A DNA stretch of 64,000 bases from Candidatus Kaiserbacteria bacterium (GTDB lineage Bacteria > Patescibacteriota > Minisyncoccia > Phycocordibacterales > UBA2100): the NCBI GenBank assembly GCA_016432285.1, contig CP066682.1:602274-666273 (forward strand), given 5' to 3'. The position numbers were made by a program, and so were the translations under genes. Positions 1,009 to 18,139 of the stretch are shown here, piece after piece. The stretch's first letter is position 1. Each line of letters starts with the position of its first letter. A model generated the notes under the pieces. It had not been told where the DNA came from, made no database searches, and worked only from the letters and a program-made list of their open reading frames with translations.

Positions 1009-1544
1009 GCGGCTTCGACACGTACGTACTCGAGGCACTCTATCGCCTCCGCGATCCGGAGTGGGTGCAAGCGCTCATCTGGATCAGCGAGCTCGGGAGC
1101 GCGTGGACCGTGTACGGACTTGCGGTCGCAGGAGCGCTCGCCTTCCTTTTCTACCGGAAGTACTCCACGGCCGCGGGACTCGCGCTTTGCATGGGTGCGG
1201 TCGGTGTGTTGATTCTTCTTCTCAAAGGCGTAACGGCACGCCCGAGGCCTCCGATCGAGTACCAGGCCTACCTCGAGATCTGGTATGCCTTCCCGAGCGC
1301 GCACGCGGCGCTCGCGGCGGCCTTTTATGGATTCCTGTTGCTACTTTCGTGGCGAGAAATACGTACTCCGCTGCTTCGGTTTGCGAGTATCTTCGCGCTC
1401 GCGCTCGTCATCGTCTTGGTCGGATTCAGCCGCGTCTATCTCGGCGTCCATTACGTAAGCGATGTGCTCGCGGGCTACCTCCTCGGCTTTTCATCAGCGT
1501 ACCTTGCGATGCGGTACGCGCGATTTGTTAAGATGCCGCGATGA
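1005..1544 (+). CDS. PAP2-family phosphatase (undecaprenyl-PP phosphatase-like)
   Basis: KGVTARPRP, FPSAH, SRVYLGVHYVSDV motifs; ATGA overlap with dgkA. Confidence 0.92.
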   Translation: MSGFDTYVLEALYRLRDPEWVQALIWISELGSAWTVYGLAVAGALAFLFYRKYSTAAGLALCMGAVGVLILLLKGVTARPRPPIEYQAYLEIWYAFPSAHAALAAAFYGFLLLLSWREIRTPLLRFASIFALALVIVLVGFSRVYLGVHYVSDVLAGYLLGFSSAYLAMRYARFVKMPR

Positions 1545-8656: not shown

Positions 8657-9954
8657 CTATGTACCTTTCTGGAGCGCCGCGATGCGGGCGCGGTACGTTG
8701 CGAGCGAGAGATTGCCGGGAGCCCCGAGCGATTGTTTGGTTGCTATGTTTTGCAAAAGGTCCACGCTTCCCGGATCCATGTCGGCCGCCTTCTTGTACGC
8801 ATCACGAAAAGGCATCCCCTCTTTTTGCACGAGGTCGTTGGCGATATCGGCGGTAAAAATACCGGAATTGATCTTGGCGCGGATGCTCTCGGGCTTCGGC
8901 GAGATGCCGGCCACAACGACCGTGGCCACCGCGAGACTGTCCTCGGCTATCTTCGTGCTCTCAAAGAGCGGCTTTTTTATGAGCTGTCCGTCTCTGTTGT
9001 AGCCGGAGAGGAGATTCTTCGCGATGTCTTTGACGATCAGCTGATTGCCGATTACGACAGACACGTTGCCGCGCATGATTTCAAGCGGATCGAGATTACG
9101 CTTATGCGGCATGATGCTAGAGCCAGTCGTGAGCGACGGATCGATCGCGAAAAAGTCGAACTCCTGCGAGGTGAAAAGCAGTAGATCGCCCGCAAACTTC
9201 CCGAGCGTGAGCATGACCTGCGCGAGAGCTTCCATGTACATGCTCTCAAATTTGCCGCGACCATTTTGGGCATACAGCGAATTGATCTGCACGGCGGAAA
9301 AGCCGAGCTCCCGCGTCGTGAATTCCCTATCGATCGGAATCGACGTGCCGAAGCCCGCGGCCGTGCCGAGCGGATTTTTATCGATGTGTGCGCGGACTCC
9401 CGCAAGGAAGCTGGCATCGTCGATGAGGCTTTCTGCGTACGCCGCGAAGTAGTGGCCCACGCTTGAGAGCATCGCTTGCTGCGTGTGCGAGTAGCCGGGC
9501 ATGGGCGCGTCTTTGTACTTCTCGGCCGCGTCGACGAATTTCGTGGCGAGCTCAAGCGCCAGCGTTTGTACACGTGCCAGGTGCGCCTTCATGTAGAGCC
9601 GCGTGGCTACGGCAACTTGGTCGTTCCTGCTTCTTCCGGTGTGGATCTTCTTGCCCGCCTCGCCGATTTTCTCGACGAGGTAATTTTCGATCACCGTGTG
9701 GCAATCTTCGTCCTCGGGTGTGATCGAGATAGCGCCTTTCTCTGCATCTTTTTCCAAATCAGAAAGAGCGCTCTCGATTGAAGCAAGCTCATCCTCCGAG
9801 AGTATGCCGATTTTCTGAAGGCCCTTCGCGTGAGCTAGCGACCCCTCTATATCGAAGGGCAAAAGCTCCACATCAAAAATGTAGTCGGTGCCCGCCGTGT
9901 ATTGCTCCACGACAGGATCGATCCGTGTATCTGTTTTTTTCCAAAGCTTAGCAT
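8657..9954 (-). CDS. argH: Argininosuccinate lyase (start ATG out of frame by one base)
   Basis: EDCHT, IHTGRSRNDQ, MPGYSHTQQA, TGSSIMPHKRNLD; N-terminal AKLWKK is preceded by an ATG in another frame. Confidence 0.93.
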
Positions 9955-9975
9955 AGTGCGGATAAGTATAACTCT

Positions 9976-10197
9976 TTATTGCTCCGTTTTTTCGGCAATA
10001 CGCGCTCTTGCCCCAGCCACAATCTCCGGAATGACGGTGGCATCCCACGAGCCCTGGGCGAGCTTCTCCTCGTGGGCCTTGAGTTCTTCTTTCGTATACG
10101 CCCGCTGCACCATATGGAAATCATCCTCTGAACCGCTGAGGGCTTTTTTGAGGACTGGATATTCTATTTTTTTCTTTTCTTGAGTTTCAAAATTCAT
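9976..10197 (-). CDS. Small hypothetical protein (73 aa)
   Basis: ORF MNFETQEKKK..., charged helical composition. Confidence 0.5.
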   Translation of the reverse strand: MNFETQEKKKIEYPVLKKALSGSEDDFHMVQRAYTKEELKAHEEKLAQGSWDATVIPEIVAGARARIAEKTEQ

Positions 10198-10518: not shown

Positions 10519-11550
10519 TTAGTTCCAGCAGATCTGTTTCTCAGGATAGCTGTCGATCTCCTGCTTGATCTGCTTCCTCACATTCCAGTAGAGATACTGC
10601 TCAGGCGGCCTCCAGCCGGAAGCCACCGCGCCGCTGAGGTCGTTGGTGAGACACGCTGCCGCACCGCCGCCGTCCCAGAACAAACGTGGGAGATTCAGCG
10701 GATGCACCTTGTAGCCATACTCCTTCAGGACCTTGGAGTAGTAGATCGACAGACCGTTCGGTGCGTACACGTGACCGTCGGGATCTTCCCGAATGTTGGT
10801 CGCGTAGCCGTAGCCATCTTTACTGGACACGCAGTGCAGTTGAGTCTGGCCCCTGTCACTCGTCGTCTCGGCGGAGACGAATTCCAGAAGTTGCTCGTAC
10901 GCGACGTCAGGATCCCAACCGCTGCCGTCTGCTTCCGCGAATGCGGAGCGGCAGACCACAACCAGCGGATCTCGAGTGGATAGCGACGCGAGAAGCGTAT
11001 CGAGATGAATGTGAGGCTCTTTCATCTTGATACGAACGACTGCGTGAGGATCGAGACCGAAGAGGTCGATGATCTCGTCGCAGGACGCTTCTTCGGCACG
11101 AACGCCATAGCCGAGAATGGCGAACGTCTTCTGCGGCGAGTGCCGCATGCACGACGATCCTTCCCACTTGCTCTTCGTTGAACCGGCGACCTTCAGACGA
11201 AGCTTCTTCTGAAGGAAGTGGCCGACGTATTCCGATTCATCGTGCCGGTGCGGGGCGCTATGGTTGGACAGCACGAAAGCTTTGAGCTTATCCGACCACG
11301 CGCCAGCATCCGCGGTATAGAGCTTGTCGAATGTCGTTTGCGGCTTTCTGCCGCAGGGCATGATGGCAAGATTTGCCTTGGAGGAGAGCTGATCGGCTGC
11401 GCCGAGCCACTCGTATCCTGCCTCACGAGGATTTGTGCCTCCGCGAAAGTTGTTGGCAACTACGCCGTATTCGGTGCCGTCCGCACGCCAACAATGTGGC
11501 GTGGGCGACATCAGGTAGGTAGGTCGCCTTGGATCGAATTTCTGTTTCAT
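10519..11550 (-). CDS. Pentein-fold hydrolase (DDAH/amidinotransferase/arginine deiminase superfamily), divergent; alternative GTG start 11625
   Basis: LYTADAG, HRHDE, WEG, IHLDT, YATN, GGGAAACLT with catalytic Cys. Confidence 0.8.
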   Translation of the reverse strand: MKQKFDPRRPTYLMSPTPHCWRADGTEYGVVANNFRGGTNPREAGYEWLGAADQLSSKANLAIMPCGRKPQTTFDKLYTADAGAWSDKLKAFVLSNHSAPHRHDESEYVGHFLQKKLRLKVAGSTKSKWEGSSCMRHSPQKTFAILGYGVRAEEASCDEIIDLFGLDPHAVVRIKMKEPHIHLDTLLASLSTRDPLVVVCRSAFAEADGSGWDPDVAYEQLLEFVSAETTSDRGQTQLHCVSSKDGYGYATNIREDPDGHVYAPNGLSIYYSKVLKEYGYKVHPLNLPRLFWDGGGAAACLTNDLSGAVASGWRPPEQYLYWNVRKQIKQEIDSYPEKQICWN

Positions 11551-11722
11551 TGCTGGCCTCTGCTTCTTGCGATGGTTGTTGGTGAATCCCGTCTGCCGTC
11601 CCGGCAAGGCGAGACAGTGGATCACGGTCCGTTGATTTCGGGCACTGTTTTGGTTGTACTCAAAGATCTTTTCACGGTCTCCTTCGTTGAGGCCGCTTTT
11701 GGAATGTTTGCGAACAAACGCT

Positions 11723-11782
11723 CTAAAGCAGTCTCAACAGAACTGCTTGTCGTCGAACCGAAAGACGTGCGAGAGTCGTCAT
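11723..11782 (-). other. Candidate Arg-sensing uORF MTTLARLSVRRQAVLLRLL
   Basis: ATG 1 nt after argG stop; CGA-CGA at 11755-11750; overlaps alternative hairpins. Confidence 0.4.
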
Positions 11783-11783
11783 A

Positions 11784-13049
11784 CTATTTTTTGCGCCTAT
11801 TTTTGCGTGCTATCTCATTTGCGATTTTCATCTGGAGCGTCGCCACTTCGATGAAGCCAGCCGACGCATTGACGTTGTACTTGTAGCCCTCCTTCACATT
11901 GAACGAAGCGTGGCCGAGCGCGTACGGCGAGTCGATCGCGACGACATTCGTGCTGCCCTTGAAAAGCTCCACTGTCACCTCCCCCTCCACCTTGGAGTTG
12001 ACCTCGTCGTTGAAGGCATTGATCGCATCCATGGCCGGGTCGTACCACTTGGCGCCGTAACAGAAGTAGCCCCACTTCACGTCGAGCTGCGATTTCACTT
12101 CGTTGAGATCGCGCGTGGATACGGCGCGCTCCAGCGCGCGGTGCGCCTCGATGATGATATGCGCGCCCGGCTGCTCGTACACGCCGCGGTCCTTGAGTCC
12201 AATCATGCGATCCTCGATCATGTAGACCACGCCGACGCCGTGCGCGCCGCCCGCGATATTGAGCTTCCTGATGATCTCGTGCAGCTCCATTTTTTTGCCG
12301 CCGAGCGAGACCGGCACGCCGCCTTTGAACTGGATTTTGACCAACGTCGATTTCGAAGGCGCGTTTTCTGGGCGCGTGTAGGTCGTGAGAAATTTCTTGA
12401 CCTGCGGGATCGACTTCGGGTTCTCCACCTCGCCGCCCTCCCACGTCATGCCCCACATATTGTCGTCCACCGAGTACGGGAAATCCTTTTTGACCGGCAC
12501 CGGGATCTTGTGCTTCAGGGCGTACGCGATCTCCTCCTTGCGGTCCATGTTCCACTCGCGCACGGGCGCAATGATTTTCATCGAGCTGTCGAGTGCGAGC
12601 ACGTAGCCGTCGAAGCGCACCTGGTCGTTGCCCTTCCCGGTACAGCCGTGAGCGATCACCTTGATGCCCTTCTGCTGCGCCACGCGCACACCTACCTTTG
12701 CGGTGAGCGCGCGCCCCAAGGGCGTGGAGAGGTGGTACTCGCCCTGATACGAGGCGTTGGCCTTGATGCCCTTGGCGATAAATTCGTCGGCAAATTCTTT
12801 CTTGGCGTCGTAGACGATCGCGTCCGCCGCGCCGAGTTTCAGCGCCTTCTTCCGGATGAAATCGAGGTCGTCCTGCTGCTGGCCGATGTCGAGCGTGAGG
12901 GCCGTCACCTTGGCACCGTAGCGATCTTGGAGCCACTTCAGCATCACCGAAGTGTCGAGACCGCCCGAATACAAAAGCAGCACCTTGTCGACATGGTCTT
13001 CCTTGACCTCGTACGAGGTTACTTTTTGATATGTCTGTGTTTTGTCCAT
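11784..13049 (-). CDS. argG: Argininosuccinate synthase
   Basis: LYSGGLDTS, AHGCTGKGNDQVRF, YSVDDNMWG, EDRMIGLKDRGVYEQP. Confidence 0.97.
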   Translation of the reverse strand: MDKTQTYQKVTSYEVKEDHVDKVLLLYSGGLDTSVMLKWLQDRYGAKVTALTLDIGQQQDDLDFIRKKALKLGAADAIVYDAKKEFADEFIAKGIKANASYQGEYHLSTPLGRALTAKVGVRVAQQKGIKVIAHGCTGKGNDQVRFDGYVLALDSSMKIIAPVREWNMDRKEEIAYALKHKIPVPVKKDFPYSVDDNMWGMTWEGGEVENPKSIPQVKKFLTTYTRPENAPSKSTLVKIQFKGGVPVSLGGKKMELHEIIRKLNIAGGAHGVGVVYMIEDRMIGLKDRGVYEQPGAHIIIEAHRALERAVSTRDLNEVKSQLDVKWGYFCYGAKWYDPAMDAINAFNDEVNSKVEGEVTVELFKGSTNVVAIDSPYALGHASFNVKEGYKYNVNASAGFIEVATLQMKIANEIARKNRRKK

Positions 13050-13093
13050 AATGATTTCTCGATTCGCACTACTGTACACAAATTTAGGAGGGT

Positions 13094-13142
13094 GAGAAGG
13101 GGGCGATGGGGATCGAACCGCTATGGTTGTCGCCCCCTTCTC
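13094..13142. other. 13-bp stem-loop between the 54-aa ORF and argG (no U-tract on the minus strand)
   Basis: GAGAAGGGGGCGA...TCGCCCCCTTCTC. Confidence 0.7.
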
Positions 13143-13164: not shown

Positions 13165-13329
13165 TCAGCCCGCATTCTCGACGAGTTTCTGGCCGAACTT
13201 GGCCTTCTCGACTTCCGAGGGCTTGAGCTTCGCGAACACATCGCGAACCGCATCCCCGAGATTCTTGTTGTCCGGATCAACGCGGACGCGTTGATCATGG
13301 ACAGTGAAGTCGTTCTTTGCTTCCGCCAT
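13165..13329 (-). CDS. Small hypothetical protein (54 aa), absent from the ORF track
   Basis: GAGGAG SD; MAEAKNDFTVHDQRVRVDPDNKNLGDAVRDVFAKLKPSEVEKAKFGQKLVENAG. Confidence 0.7.
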   Translation of the reverse strand: MAEAKNDFTVHDQRVRVDPDNKNLGDAVRDVFAKLKPSEVEKAKFGQKLVENAG

Positions 13330-13406: not shown

Positions 13407-13437
13407 CAAAGAACAACCGGCCTTGAGGCCGGTTGTT
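13407..13437 (-). terminator. Attenuator terminator upstream of the arg cluster
   Basis: AACAACCGGCCT-CA-AGGCCGGTTGTT then CTTTG; its 5' arm is shared with a 24-nt antiterminator. Confidence 0.8.
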
Positions 13438-13472
13438 TGAGTTTATGGAGAGATAAACGCAAGCAAGCAGCC

Positions 13473-13535
13473 TCAAAGGGAGCCGGCTCGTCGTCGGAGT
13501 TGAATCGCCGATATAAGGTTGGCAATCCGAGTCAT
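13473..13535 (-). CDS. Arginine attenuator leader peptide MTRIANLISAIQLRRRAGSL
   Basis: Three tandem CGA codons (13496-13488); stop overlaps the antiterminator arm; TTGACG-16-TAAAGT-6-ATG. Confidence 0.75.
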   Translation of the reverse strand: MTRIANLISAIQLRRRAGSL

Positions 13536-13541
13536 GCGGAC

Positions 13542-13569
13542 ACTTTACACTTCGCCACAATTTCGTCAA
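13542..13569 (-). promoter_or_regulatory. Promoter of the arg leader (leaderless)
   Basis: TTGACG (13569-13564), 16 nt, TAAAGT (13547-13542). Confidence 0.7.
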
Positions 13570-13655: not shown

Positions 13656-14489
13656 TTATGGAACTTTTTTCAGAACGATGAACCACTCCCAAACGCGCGA
13701 CCCACCCCCTGGCACGGGACGGATAAAAACGTGGCACTCGCCGTAGCGAGGGATGAAGTAGACCACGCTCGGGAAGAATCCCTGCGTGTTCAGTTGTCCT
13801 GCAAGTACGCACGGGCCCAGATTGTCCACGATCGGACTCTTGAGGACCATGAGCACATCAAGACCTTCTTTCGGTGTCGCAACTTCGGCGCTTCTTTCCG
13901 AGCACCATTTCAGGAGTTCGTCTCGGGATAATCGCCGCCGAAAACGTACTGCCGTAGCCGTGAAGCGTTGTGTGCCTTTCCGATGATCTGGGAACTCGAT
14001 ATCAAAAGCCGACTCGGGGTCTCCCAGAATGAGTCGCAAGCGCTCTATCCGCTTAAGTTTCGAGGAGATCGATTCATCGTAGTCGATCACGTACTCCCCG
14101 AGTGCGATCTCAATGGGCGGACCGGGCTCGTTCAGCAGATCCATATATTCAGACTGAAGTAGGTTGCCGTCGTCGTCGTATGAGAGATCGAACCTCTTGC
14201 GGCATGATTTGCACACTGCATGCACCTCAGTGCTGACCGAGTCCGCATGAAAACGGAACTCGAACGGATGCGTGAACAAGAGCGCACGATCATTAGCCCG
14301 TCGACATGTCTTGAAGTGCTCTTTTGCAAGTTTTTCGAGCACAGTCATTTGTATCGCGTCGACGTGGAAGGTTTGCGGTTGCTTCCAGCCATGATTCGCC
14401 TCGGAGCCAAGTTGCTGAAAGGCGCGGTCCAGAGGGTCATGTTGGCCTTTTAGCGTGTATACATTGTCTTCAGTGCCATTCTCGGTCAT
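13656..14489 (-). CDS. Hypothetical protein with CxxC
   Basis: 277-aa ORF, GGAG SD, HFKTC...VCKSC. Confidence 0.6.
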   Translation of the reverse strand: MTENGTEDNVYTLKGQHDPLDRAFQQLGSEANHGWKQPQTFHVDAIQMTVLEKLAKEHFKTCRRANDRALLFTHPFEFRFHADSVSTEVHAVCKSCRKRFDLSYDDDGNLLQSEYMDLLNEPGPPIEIALGEYVIDYDESISSKLKRIERLRLILGDPESAFDIEFPDHRKGTQRFTATAVRFRRRLSRDELLKWCSERSAEVATPKEGLDVLMVLKSPIVDNLGPCVLAGQLNTQGFFPSVVYFIPRYGECHVFIRPVPGGGSRVWEWFIVLKKVP

Positions 14490-14722
14490 CTTCGTTCTCC
14501 ATATTGTCGCTTAGCTCAGCGACCCTTCGAAAGTCTAGTACAGAAAGACCGGCATCGAAAGGACCGAGCAGACGTGCTTCAAGAGACCAGCCCTCCCATT
14601 GGCAAAAAAATGTGCTGGACGGGGGCTTCATTAACGCGGTATGCTCATTCTTGGCCGTGCTGTTCTTTGTCATCAAGGAAGAGCGCAGCCACACCCAAAC
14701 TCACACGAAAGGAGTACAGACC

Positions 14723-15823
14723 ATGAAGGTCTGGAACGCTACCGAAAAGAGCGCCTCCCGGCAAGCGATTGCTGCCCTGGAGGGCGGAATTGGAATCTCG
14801 ACCGTCATGCAGGTTGATGGTGACGGGGGCTTTCGCATGTCACAGAATGGCCCCGGTATCTTCGAAATCACCTGCGAATCCACGTTGCCTCCGCTCGTTC
14901 TGACCGGCGGCATCCATGGCGACGAGAAGGCGGGGATCTCGATTCTCGACAGCCTGATCGACGACATCGTCAGCGGCAATCAGCGCGTCAAGCGCAGCGT
15001 GCTGCTGATGTTCGGAAATCTCCGTGCGATGCAGACCAACGGCTTCAAGGGTTGTCGCTGCATCGAAGACGAGGTCGGCGAGACCTCCAACCTCAATCGC
15101 TGCTTCGGCAGGGGCTACTTCGAAACCCCGCGCTGCTACGGCGAGCATCGGGCCAACGAAATGATGCGTGCTGTTGAAGACTTTGCGGACACCCATGGGT
15201 GCCCCGAAGTCATCGACATCCACCAGAGCTTCGCGGTGCCCACGCTTCGTGATGTGCGCGGCGGCGTCGCCGACCGGAGCGATTACACGTACGCAATGCT
15301 CTACCCGGTCGAGGACGATCTCGCGTCTGCTCTTGGCTGGATCCATGAGCAGTACAGCGACATCGTCGCAGGCGCCGTGGTCAACGACATGCAGCTCCGG
15401 CACCATACGTTTGCCGGCTACATGGCGTCGACATTCGGCTCTCGGGCGGCGACCTTCGAGCAGGGCAACATCGGGTACGTTGATCACTCGACGTTTACCC
15501 CCCAGCTCGAAGACAACCTCTCTCGCAAGATTGCGGGCGAGACGAAGCTCGACAAGATGGAAGGCTTCGACGTGTGGAGGTATCTTCGTCAAATCCGCAA
15601 GGAGACGAAGGACTTCACCTTCATCGACGACGAGGGCAACCGCACCAACGCCCCCCTCGACTTCCTTCCGTTGCCGGCCGGTCGCATCGCGCGGGACGGC
15701 CACCGGGAGCACGAGCTTCGGATGGGCGAGAGACTGCTCTTCGCCAACTCGACGGTCCCGATCGGGGACCGCGCGGCGGCAGTCATCGAACGGCTGCACA
15801 CGGACCTCGTGCCCGCTCCTTGA
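14723..15823 (+). CDS. Succinylglutamate desuccinylase/aspartoacylase-family (M14) zinc hydrolase
   Basis: GGIHGDEKAG, NLNRCF, IDIHQS, FEQG; AAGGAG SD. Confidence 0.82.
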   Translation: MKVWNATEKSASRQAIAALEGGIGISTVMQVDGDGGFRMSQNGPGIFEITCESTLPPLVLTGGIHGDEKAGISILDSLIDDIVSGNQRVKRSVLLMFGNLRAMQTNGFKGCRCIEDEVGETSNLNRCFGRGYFETPRCYGEHRANEMMRAVEDFADTHGCPEVIDIHQSFAVPTLRDVRGGVADRSDYTYAMLYPVEDDLASALGWIHEQYSDIVAGAVVNDMQLRHHTFAGYMASTFGSRAATFEQGNIGYVDHSTFTPQLEDNLSRKIAGETKLDKMEGFDVWRYLRQIRKETKDFTFIDDEGNRTNAPLDFLPLPAGRIARDGHREHELRMGERLLFANSTVPIGDRAAAVIERLHTDLVPAP

Positions 15824-17775: not shown

Positions 17776-17800
17776 AAAAACCCCCTCGCGAGAGGGGGCT
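17776..17800 (-). terminator. Attenuator-type terminator between hisR-like gene and hisG
   Basis: AGCCCCCTC-TCGC-GAGGGGGTTTTT. Confidence 0.8.
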
Positions 17801-17830
17801 GGTTTGAAAAATGATGCAGACACTATCAAC

Positions 17831-18139
17831 TCAACCCCCTCGTGCGATGGGAATCGAGCGCCCGTGCAAACGGTTGATGACCGCACGGTAGCCGCCCTGC
17901 CGGCCCTTCAGCCACTTTGAGACACGTGCGACGGTGGTGGAAGAGAGGCCCGTCGTTTCCTCGATGCGGGAATACGGCTCGCCTACAGCGAGCATTTCGG
18001 CCGCCCGGAAGCGCTTTGCGAACTCCTCGATCTCACCCTCCGTCATCAGATCCCGGAGAAAACGGCGCCCCTCAGACGGGTTTTTGAGCACCAAAAGGGC
18101 TCGGACAAGGCGGACTATTTCGGGCTTATTCCAGTTCAT
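17831..18139 (-). CDS. TrpR-like YerC/YecD (HisR-like) repressor
   Basis: FLRDLMTEGEI, YSRIEETTGLSSTTVARVSKWL..GGY; lies upstream of his genes. Confidence 0.92.
   Translation of the reverse strand: MNWNKPEIVRLVRALLVLKNPSEGRRFLRDLMTEGEIEEFAKRFRAAEMLAVGEPYSRIEETTGLSSTTVARVSKWLKGRQGGYRAVINRLHGRSIPIARGG

Follow-up and report, generated by a model that had tools for sequence, protein, structure and literature searches.

A Candidatus Kaiserbacteria argininosuccinate synthase gene (argG) is preceded by what is probably a transcription attenuator through which the ribosome senses charged tRNA-Arg, a reading of its sequence and modeled folds to which we give a probability of about 85%. Control by a repressor (ArgR) instead of leader-peptide attenuation is typified by arginine synthesis, and we know of no attenuation of the arg genes of Escherichia coli. 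The initial annotation of the DNA analyzed here, a stretch of 64,000 nucleotides that we call the window, had proposed an attenuator at this position. That proposal, in which the regulation itself is what we infer, is supported by a run of Arg codons in a leader open reading frame (ORF) and its spacing, by conservation and by covariation in three helices, by the arginine genes that lie downstream, and by the lack of ArgR.

The leader and all of its parts lie on the minus strand. A sigma-70-type promoter (13542..13569) consists of TTGACG (13569-13564), a 16-nt spacer, and TAAAGT (13547-13542), and 6 nt past the -10 hexamer, at 13535, stands the ATG of the leader ORF, all as first annotated. A promoter scan agreed, scoring the site 9/12 and reporting 2 sites in 1.4 kb versus 0.5 in shuffled sequences. 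Since the start codon follows the -10 hexamer by only 6 nt, the leader mRNA is predicted to be leaderless. The ORF (13473..13535) has 20 codons and a TGA stop (13475-13473), and its codons 14 to 16 are the CGA-CGA-CGA (13488..13496) that had been put forward as Arg control codons. Genome G000 has five tRNA-Arg genes, with the anticodons TCT, GCG, TCG, CCT, and CCG; none has ACG, so CGA has its own tRNA. The leader folds better than any of 200 shuffled sequences (z = -4.11). In an Rfam search, no family reached threshold, and the three matches returned were chance-level hits to unrelated families (E up to 5); neither the covariance models of the Trp, His, Leu, and Thr leader families nor that of the T-box riboswitch (RF00230) matched the leader.

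We name the helices by their segments, 1:2, 2:3, and 3:4, as is done for classical attenuators. The antiterminator (2:3, 13421..13478, -25.1 kcal/mol) comprises 20 Watson-Crick pairs, one G-U pair, and three mismatches over 24 positions, a recount that reproduces the annotated pairing exactly. The intrinsic terminator (3:4, 13408..13437) lies where it had been placed and has the U-rich tail ascribed to it (7 U in 9 nt, 13416-13408, past a 6-bp G+C core), but its helix (13437-13412, -18.9 kcal/mol, also reported by the promoter/terminator scan) is one of 11 bp with a 4-nt loop rather than of 12 bp, because a twelfth pair would leave a loop of 2 nt. To this description we add a protector or pause hairpin (1:2, 13464..13490), which is irregular in the window (-10.7 kcal/mol) and regular in most relatives and which completes the classical four-segment layout.

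Folding with ribosome-position constraints had been suggested in the initial annotation as a check, and we modeled the ribosome as an unpaired block, with its footprint counted in nucleotides past the A site. The window leader switched, with an outcome that varied with the footprint chosen: segment 2 stayed free when the ribosome stood on the control codons and was covered when it stood at the stop codon, and the terminator replaced the antiterminator as the best fold once the ribosome moved from codon 16 to codon 17. In the partition function, the probability of the terminator was 0.00 to 0.52 with the A site on Arg14 or Arg15 (footprints of 6 to 12 nt), 0.93 to 0.98 from codon 17 or 18 to the stop, and 0.95 to 0.98 at the stop itself. 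A stall on Arg16 gave 0.28 to 0.52 at footprints of 6 to 9 nt and at least 0.93 at footprints of at least 10 nt, so that the modeled switching margin is narrow, and at the larger footprints a stall on the third Arg codon would no longer block the terminator. Whereas trp and his terminate by default, the untranslated window leader preferred the antiterminator at equilibrium (0.96) and, in transcripts ending at 13465-13435, had as its best fold a competing hairpin that uses segment 2.

In the mechanism that we propose, RNA polymerase would start at or beside the ATG, and a ribosome would load on the leaderless 5' end. The computed folds predict that, when Arg-tRNA is ample, this ribosome would reach the stop codon and cover segment 2, leaving segment 3 free to form the terminator, and that when Arg-tRNA is scarce it would stall on the Arg codons and cover segment 1 only, allowing the 2:3 hairpin to form and transcription to read through. 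The 1:2 hairpin, to judge from its conservation, is a probable pause or protector when no ribosome follows.

Arg-run upstream ORFs and covarying stems, which the initial annotation had suggested seeking in related genomes, are both conserved within the genus. A covariance model made from 12 leaders, with the terminator as the sole structure given, found the element at 56 sense-strand places in 49 of 116 genus genomes (E < 1e-5). Leaving out one place cut by a contig end, 49 of the 55 scored copies carry a run of two or three Arg codons, 5 have Arg-x-Arg, and 1 has a single Arg, a count that is partly circular in that the model was trained on Arg-containing leaders and that kin are not independent. 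A -10-like hexamer lies 5 to 9 nt before the leader start at 46 of the 56 places, and the distance from the last Arg codon to the antiterminator core is 12 to 16 nt in 35 of the 36 copies measured. Stalling lowered the terminator probability to below 0.5 in 44, 42, and 38 of the 55 copies at footprints of 7, 9, and 11 nt, respectively, and 11 to 17 homologues showed no switch in equilibrium folding. The L013 copy (1270-1472, plus strand) has a duplicated segment 2 and an ORF lengthened to 27 codons, and it did not switch in constrained folding.

Across 53 aligned copies, the 1:2 helix was 82.8% paired, the 2:3 helix 90.9%, and the 3:4 helix 95.8% (the last being a helix that the model itself had fitted), values reached in 0 of 500 shuffles each, although these shuffles ignore kinship; slid registers of the three helices were 21 to 61% paired. 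Double changes were seen in 12 of the 16 antiterminator pairs. The 1:2 helix had 21 cells with a double change versus 9.9 in shuffles, and its count of pairs with double changes was not above that of shuffles (173/500). RNAalifold, run on a 12-row alignment, returned the terminator only, and the other helices were set by hand and then counted. In these alignments, all three helices are kept across the 53 copies, with compensatory changes. Were the element a small RNA or a plain terminator, the Arg codons would be a by-product of RNA conservation, and the 1:2 pairing does explain part of the coding sequence past the Arg run. The Arg codons, however, lie mostly ahead of the helices and vary in their third position, and the frame is open from a start just past the -10 hexamer; moreover, the helices are mutually exclusive, the spacing is fixed, and no Rfam family is matched at threshold, all of which makes this explanation very improbable.

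Codon usage bears on a different alternative, namely, that the switch is real but reads another signal, either the slowness with which tRNA-Arg(UCG) decodes CGA or a ligand- or drug-induced stall at an Arg-rich motif of the kind seen in speF orf34 and in Arg-x-Arg resistance leaders. CGA accounts for 92 of the 131 control codons in the family (the others being 25 CGT, 12 CGC, 1 AGG, and 1 AGA) versus 12 of the 161 Arg codons in eight window genes, and this bias speaks for such a signal, as do the 5 leaders with Arg-x-Arg and the many downstream GNAT proteins whose best solved relatives are phosphinothricin acetyltransferase-like (with weak E values). Yet CGT and CGC serve as well, as do AGG and AGA in the second leader family described below; the residues ahead of the Arg run vary widely among leaders when compared by eye; and the downstream genes of known function are arginine biosynthesis genes. 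We consider a signal other than arginine supply improbable.

Downstream of the window leader, the gene order is a 54-amino-acid (54-aa) orphan ORF, argG, a pentein-like gene, two small ORFs, argH, and purF. The argG gene (11784..13049, minus strand) scores 426 bits against TIGR00032 (cut-off, 268) and argH (argininosuccinate lyase; 8657..10048, minus strand, open-frame limits with the start not fixed) scores 330 bits against TIGR00838 (cut-off, 279.5), whereas the gene between them (10519..11550, minus strand), resembling DDAH or arginine dihydrolase, was recognized through sub-threshold matches to NF045659 (E 2e-6) and PF19420. On the opposite strand, between the his and arg genes, lies an AstE/aspartoacylase-like gene that is below cut-off (14324-15823, plus strand).

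We found argG in 23 of the 116 genus genomes, one of them of a distant type (31% identity); its closest named relatives (79 to 84% identity) are mostly from Ca. Kaiserbacteria (Patescibacteria). Among the 15 relative loci inspected first, the leader immediately precedes argG in 9 and other arg genes in 2; the rest comprised 1 with a terminator-like remnant only, 2 cut by contig ends, and 1 of the distant type. The 49 genomes with the element divide into 18 with an argG match and 31 with none, and 4 argG genomes are without a strong element match, one of which (L163) bears a weak copy with Arg-x-Arg in front of an argC-like gene. Full-length argC genes, over cut-off, follow the element in L020, L152, and L153 (TIGR01850 was tested on L020 and L152), and in L020 argC is followed by argJ, argB, argD, and argG. 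Behind elements, argG, argH, argC, argJ, argB, and argD are found with scores over NCBIfam cut-offs.

The element in genomes without an argG match mostly precedes proteins of 160 to 200 aa that are kinase-like or GNATs. The kinase-like protein has a truncated amino-acid-kinase fold, with acetylglutamate kinase as its one solved match (E 6e-4), and in L133 (475-1473, minus strand) it is fused to the GNAT, a fusion that resembles ArgA-type synthases in domain order. Truncated kinases of ~165 aa and GNATs of ~175 aa were noted behind the Arg leader in L133, L167, L168, and L175. Of 14 Arg-leader loci that were extended, 3 hold an ornithine carbamoyltransferase-like gene, just below cut-off, and 8 have a purF-like gene, recognized by its N terminus, soon after. 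Several ORFs downstream of the element match no family, and the membership of the GNAT and mini-kinase genes in the arginine pathway is uncertain. ArgR (PF01316) was found in none of the 116 genus genomes, in a search in which 9 of 14 controls were positive, and it was likewise not found in one genome that is 97% complete. Most likely, the element stands in for ArgR in this genus and heads the arginine genes together with a variable cassette near purF.

A second copy of the element (11664..11782, minus strand, E 1.3e-5), which the initial annotation did not contain, has a 19-codon ORF that starts 1 nt past the argG stop codon. It retains two CGA codons (11755-11750) and an intact antiterminator; its terminator is weak and has no U tract. 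Second copies behind argG are also present in L021 (E 5e-8), L017 (E 0.003), and L022 (E 0.14), and in all four loci the copy lies ahead of a pentein-like gene. We envisage that copy 1 would gate the 54-aa ORF and readthrough toward argG and that copy 2 would probably gate the pentein gene and argH. The 54-aa ORF, the first gene past the attenuator (13165..13329, minus strand), has a Shine-Dalgarno-like site and looks coding (codon-position G+C of 0.69/0.30/0.72); it has no match in the 115 other genus genomes, and the close relatives L017, L021, and L022 carry other, unrelated small ORFs between copy 1 and argG.

Between the 54-aa ORF and argG lies a further feature (13071..13142, minus strand), made up of a 13-bp hairpin (13142-13094) that no U tract directly follows and a promoter-like site (TTCTCA at 13098-13093, 16 nt, and TACAGT at 13076-13071) that overlaps the 3' arm of the hairpin. 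The TACAGT had been pointed out 21 nt upstream of the argG ATG and is indeed there. By its sequence, the site is a candidate for a basal promoter that argG may have of its own and, since it scores 8/12 and TAnnnT is common before starts, no more than a candidate. The attenuator might accordingly be real and yet control mainly the 54-aa ORF, with argG transcribed from this internal promoter and copy 2 controlling what follows, an arrangement that is compatible with our main reading. The hairpin and a TT(C/G)TCA-16 nt-TAnAnT site ~20 nt before the argG start recur in the window, L017, L021, and L022, which are the four loci with an inserted ORF and the same four that have the second copy, and the 16-nt spacing is also that of the leader promoter. 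Nevertheless, we regard this arrangement as unlikely, if well worth keeping in mind: the window's site was absent from the output of the promoter scan, TAnnnT occurs within 33 nt of the start in 37% of 774 long ORFs of the window genome, readthrough from copy 1 should pass a hairpin that has no direct U tract, and the attenuator abuts argG in most relatives. The hairpin is not a repeat in the window genome. The original proposal that copy 1 governs both argG and the pentein gene is weakened all the same; with a promoter-like site and a hairpin conserved before argG and copy 2 behind it, copy 1 may not be the sole control of argG, and the pentein gene stands behind copy 2.

Outside the genus, where 150 further genomes of the order were searched, the genus model matched 6 (E < 1e-4), of which only L184 has an Arg-Arg leader, the others looking like terminators only. 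More widely in the CPR, we surveyed 80 arginine loci by position at the first arg gene, 73 of them untruncated. A T-box-like motif, scored by a short sequence motif, was present in 32 of the 73, and Rfam, run on 8 of the motif-positive loci, passed 1 (L028) at the RF00230 gathering score, so that the remaining motif-positive loci are T-box-like only. An ORF anchored to a -10 hexamer and containing adjacent Arg codons occurred in 17 of the 41 loci without the motif versus 4 of the 32 with it. A second leader family (n = 17), in records labeled Roizmanbacteria, Levybacteria, or Microgenomates or labeled less exactly, precedes argH or argG and has a differing sequence, mostly AGG and AGA codons, and a C-rich terminator; in many of its best folds, the antiterminator and the terminator are both present, and their overlap is less clean. 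A Dojkabacteria record (L068) holds a further form of Arg leader, in tandem with a T-box-like motif (below the Rfam gathering score) upstream of argG. Judging from these loci, CPR arginine operons use either T-box-like elements, one of them confirmed by Rfam, or Arg leaders. Between argH and argG, L078, L089, L090, and L096 have hairpin-less ORFs of 11 to 14 codons in which two Arg codons are adjacent; these tiny ORFs just before argG are possibly translational controls or remnants. Upstream of argG in L038 is a leader of another type, a short ORF without adjacent Arg codons whose stop codon overlaps a terminator that immediately precedes argG.

Candidate leaders for other amino acids were noticed along the way. 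Two weaker matches, L155 (2515-2613, minus strand) and L161 (370-468, plus strand), have the same RNA layout with leaders containing three Ile codons and precede ORFs of ~105 aa without an assigned function. In the window, hisG is preceded by a leaderless YerC/HisR-like gene (17777-18139, minus strand) whose only His codon stands 11 codons before the end, and the 5' arm of a terminator can base-pair with the final codons of that gene; in constrained folding, the terminator probability was 0.00 with the ribosome on His and 0.96 at the stop. Among 30 loci of the genus, a His-containing tail and a terminator of this kind occur together in 20, and 15 of the 20 switch at the first His, which suggests that the repressor gene may double as a His leader. 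A candidate Met attenuator (G000:C1:683506, minus strand; L182) combines a strong terminator with a leaderless ORF of 22 codons, in which Met codons form two runs, and is followed by a small Cys-containing ORF and then, by eye, by pyrF-like and pyrE-like genes. These observations can be drawn together in a more speculative picture, which we offer tentatively and hold to be rather doubtful as a whole: the arginine regulon of the Kaiserbacteria would be run wholly through leaderless attenuators without ArgR, within a network of ribosome-stalling leaders (Arg, His in the HisR-like tail, Met, and Ile), the element would mark a mobile, variable slot, and the 31 genomes without an argG match would have an as yet undescribed starvation-induced route. 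That route would consist of the truncated acetylglutamate-kinase-like protein, the GNAT, and the ornithine carbamoyltransferase-like enzyme, working perhaps on host-derived ornithine, citrulline, or arginine.

The element seems to work like a classical attenuator and displays nearly all of the features that computation can address, the folds of the untranslated leader pointing both ways on default termination. Like E. coli trpL and hisL (and also thrL, leuL, and pheL), it combines a short ORF, tandem cognate codons, and three helices with cognate biosynthesis genes; unlike them, it is arginine-specific, leaderless, without an Rfam match, and found in Patescibacteria, and its untranslated window copy favors the antiterminator at equilibrium. 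Mycobacterial polycysteine attenuator ORFs are leaderless sensing ORFs as well, for another amino acid. The fungal arginine attenuator peptide also places arginine genes under arginine control through an upstream ORF, but it does so at the level of translation, through a conserved nascent peptide that stalls when free arginine is high. T-boxes (RF00230) read tRNA charging, gate a terminator likewise, and serve arginine operons in other CPR genomes; in them the RNA reads the tRNA, whereas in the window element the ribosome would. Published accounts cover the classical mechanism (PMC9413887 and PMC9291695), His attenuators and HisR (PMC9413887), the hisL pause (PMC9291695), and a Cys leader and one with Arg-Leu-Arg (PMC8632094). 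Among the nearest systems is the Salmonella speF leader, in which orf34 has two consecutive Arg codons and pausing at low arginine alters mRNA folding; it differs in controlling ornithine decarboxylase through Rho, unmasking of a ribosome-binding site, and RNase G, with no intrinsic terminator before arginine biosynthesis genes (PMC6386406). The Staphylococcus aureus rbfL upstream ORF also senses arginine limitation through Arg codons but occludes a downstream ribosome-binding site, so that starvation lowers expression, and its target is a biofilm regulator (PMC13009471). In the open-access literature, we found no attenuator with a leader peptide for arginine synthesis in bacteria, nor any in Patescibacteria, although subscription papers or supplements, such as those of large computational surveys, could hold a prediction. 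We conclude that the element belongs to no Rfam leader family and is probably an arginine-specific, leaderless form of classical attenuation.

CPR bacteria are mostly uncultured and poor in regulators. If our reading is true, arginine joins the amino acid pathways under leader-peptide attenuation, and CPR bacteria would need leaderless initiation as well as transcription that is closely coupled to translation. The element, which fits in 170 bases, would also serve as a tag that assigns small genes of unassigned function to arginine starvation.
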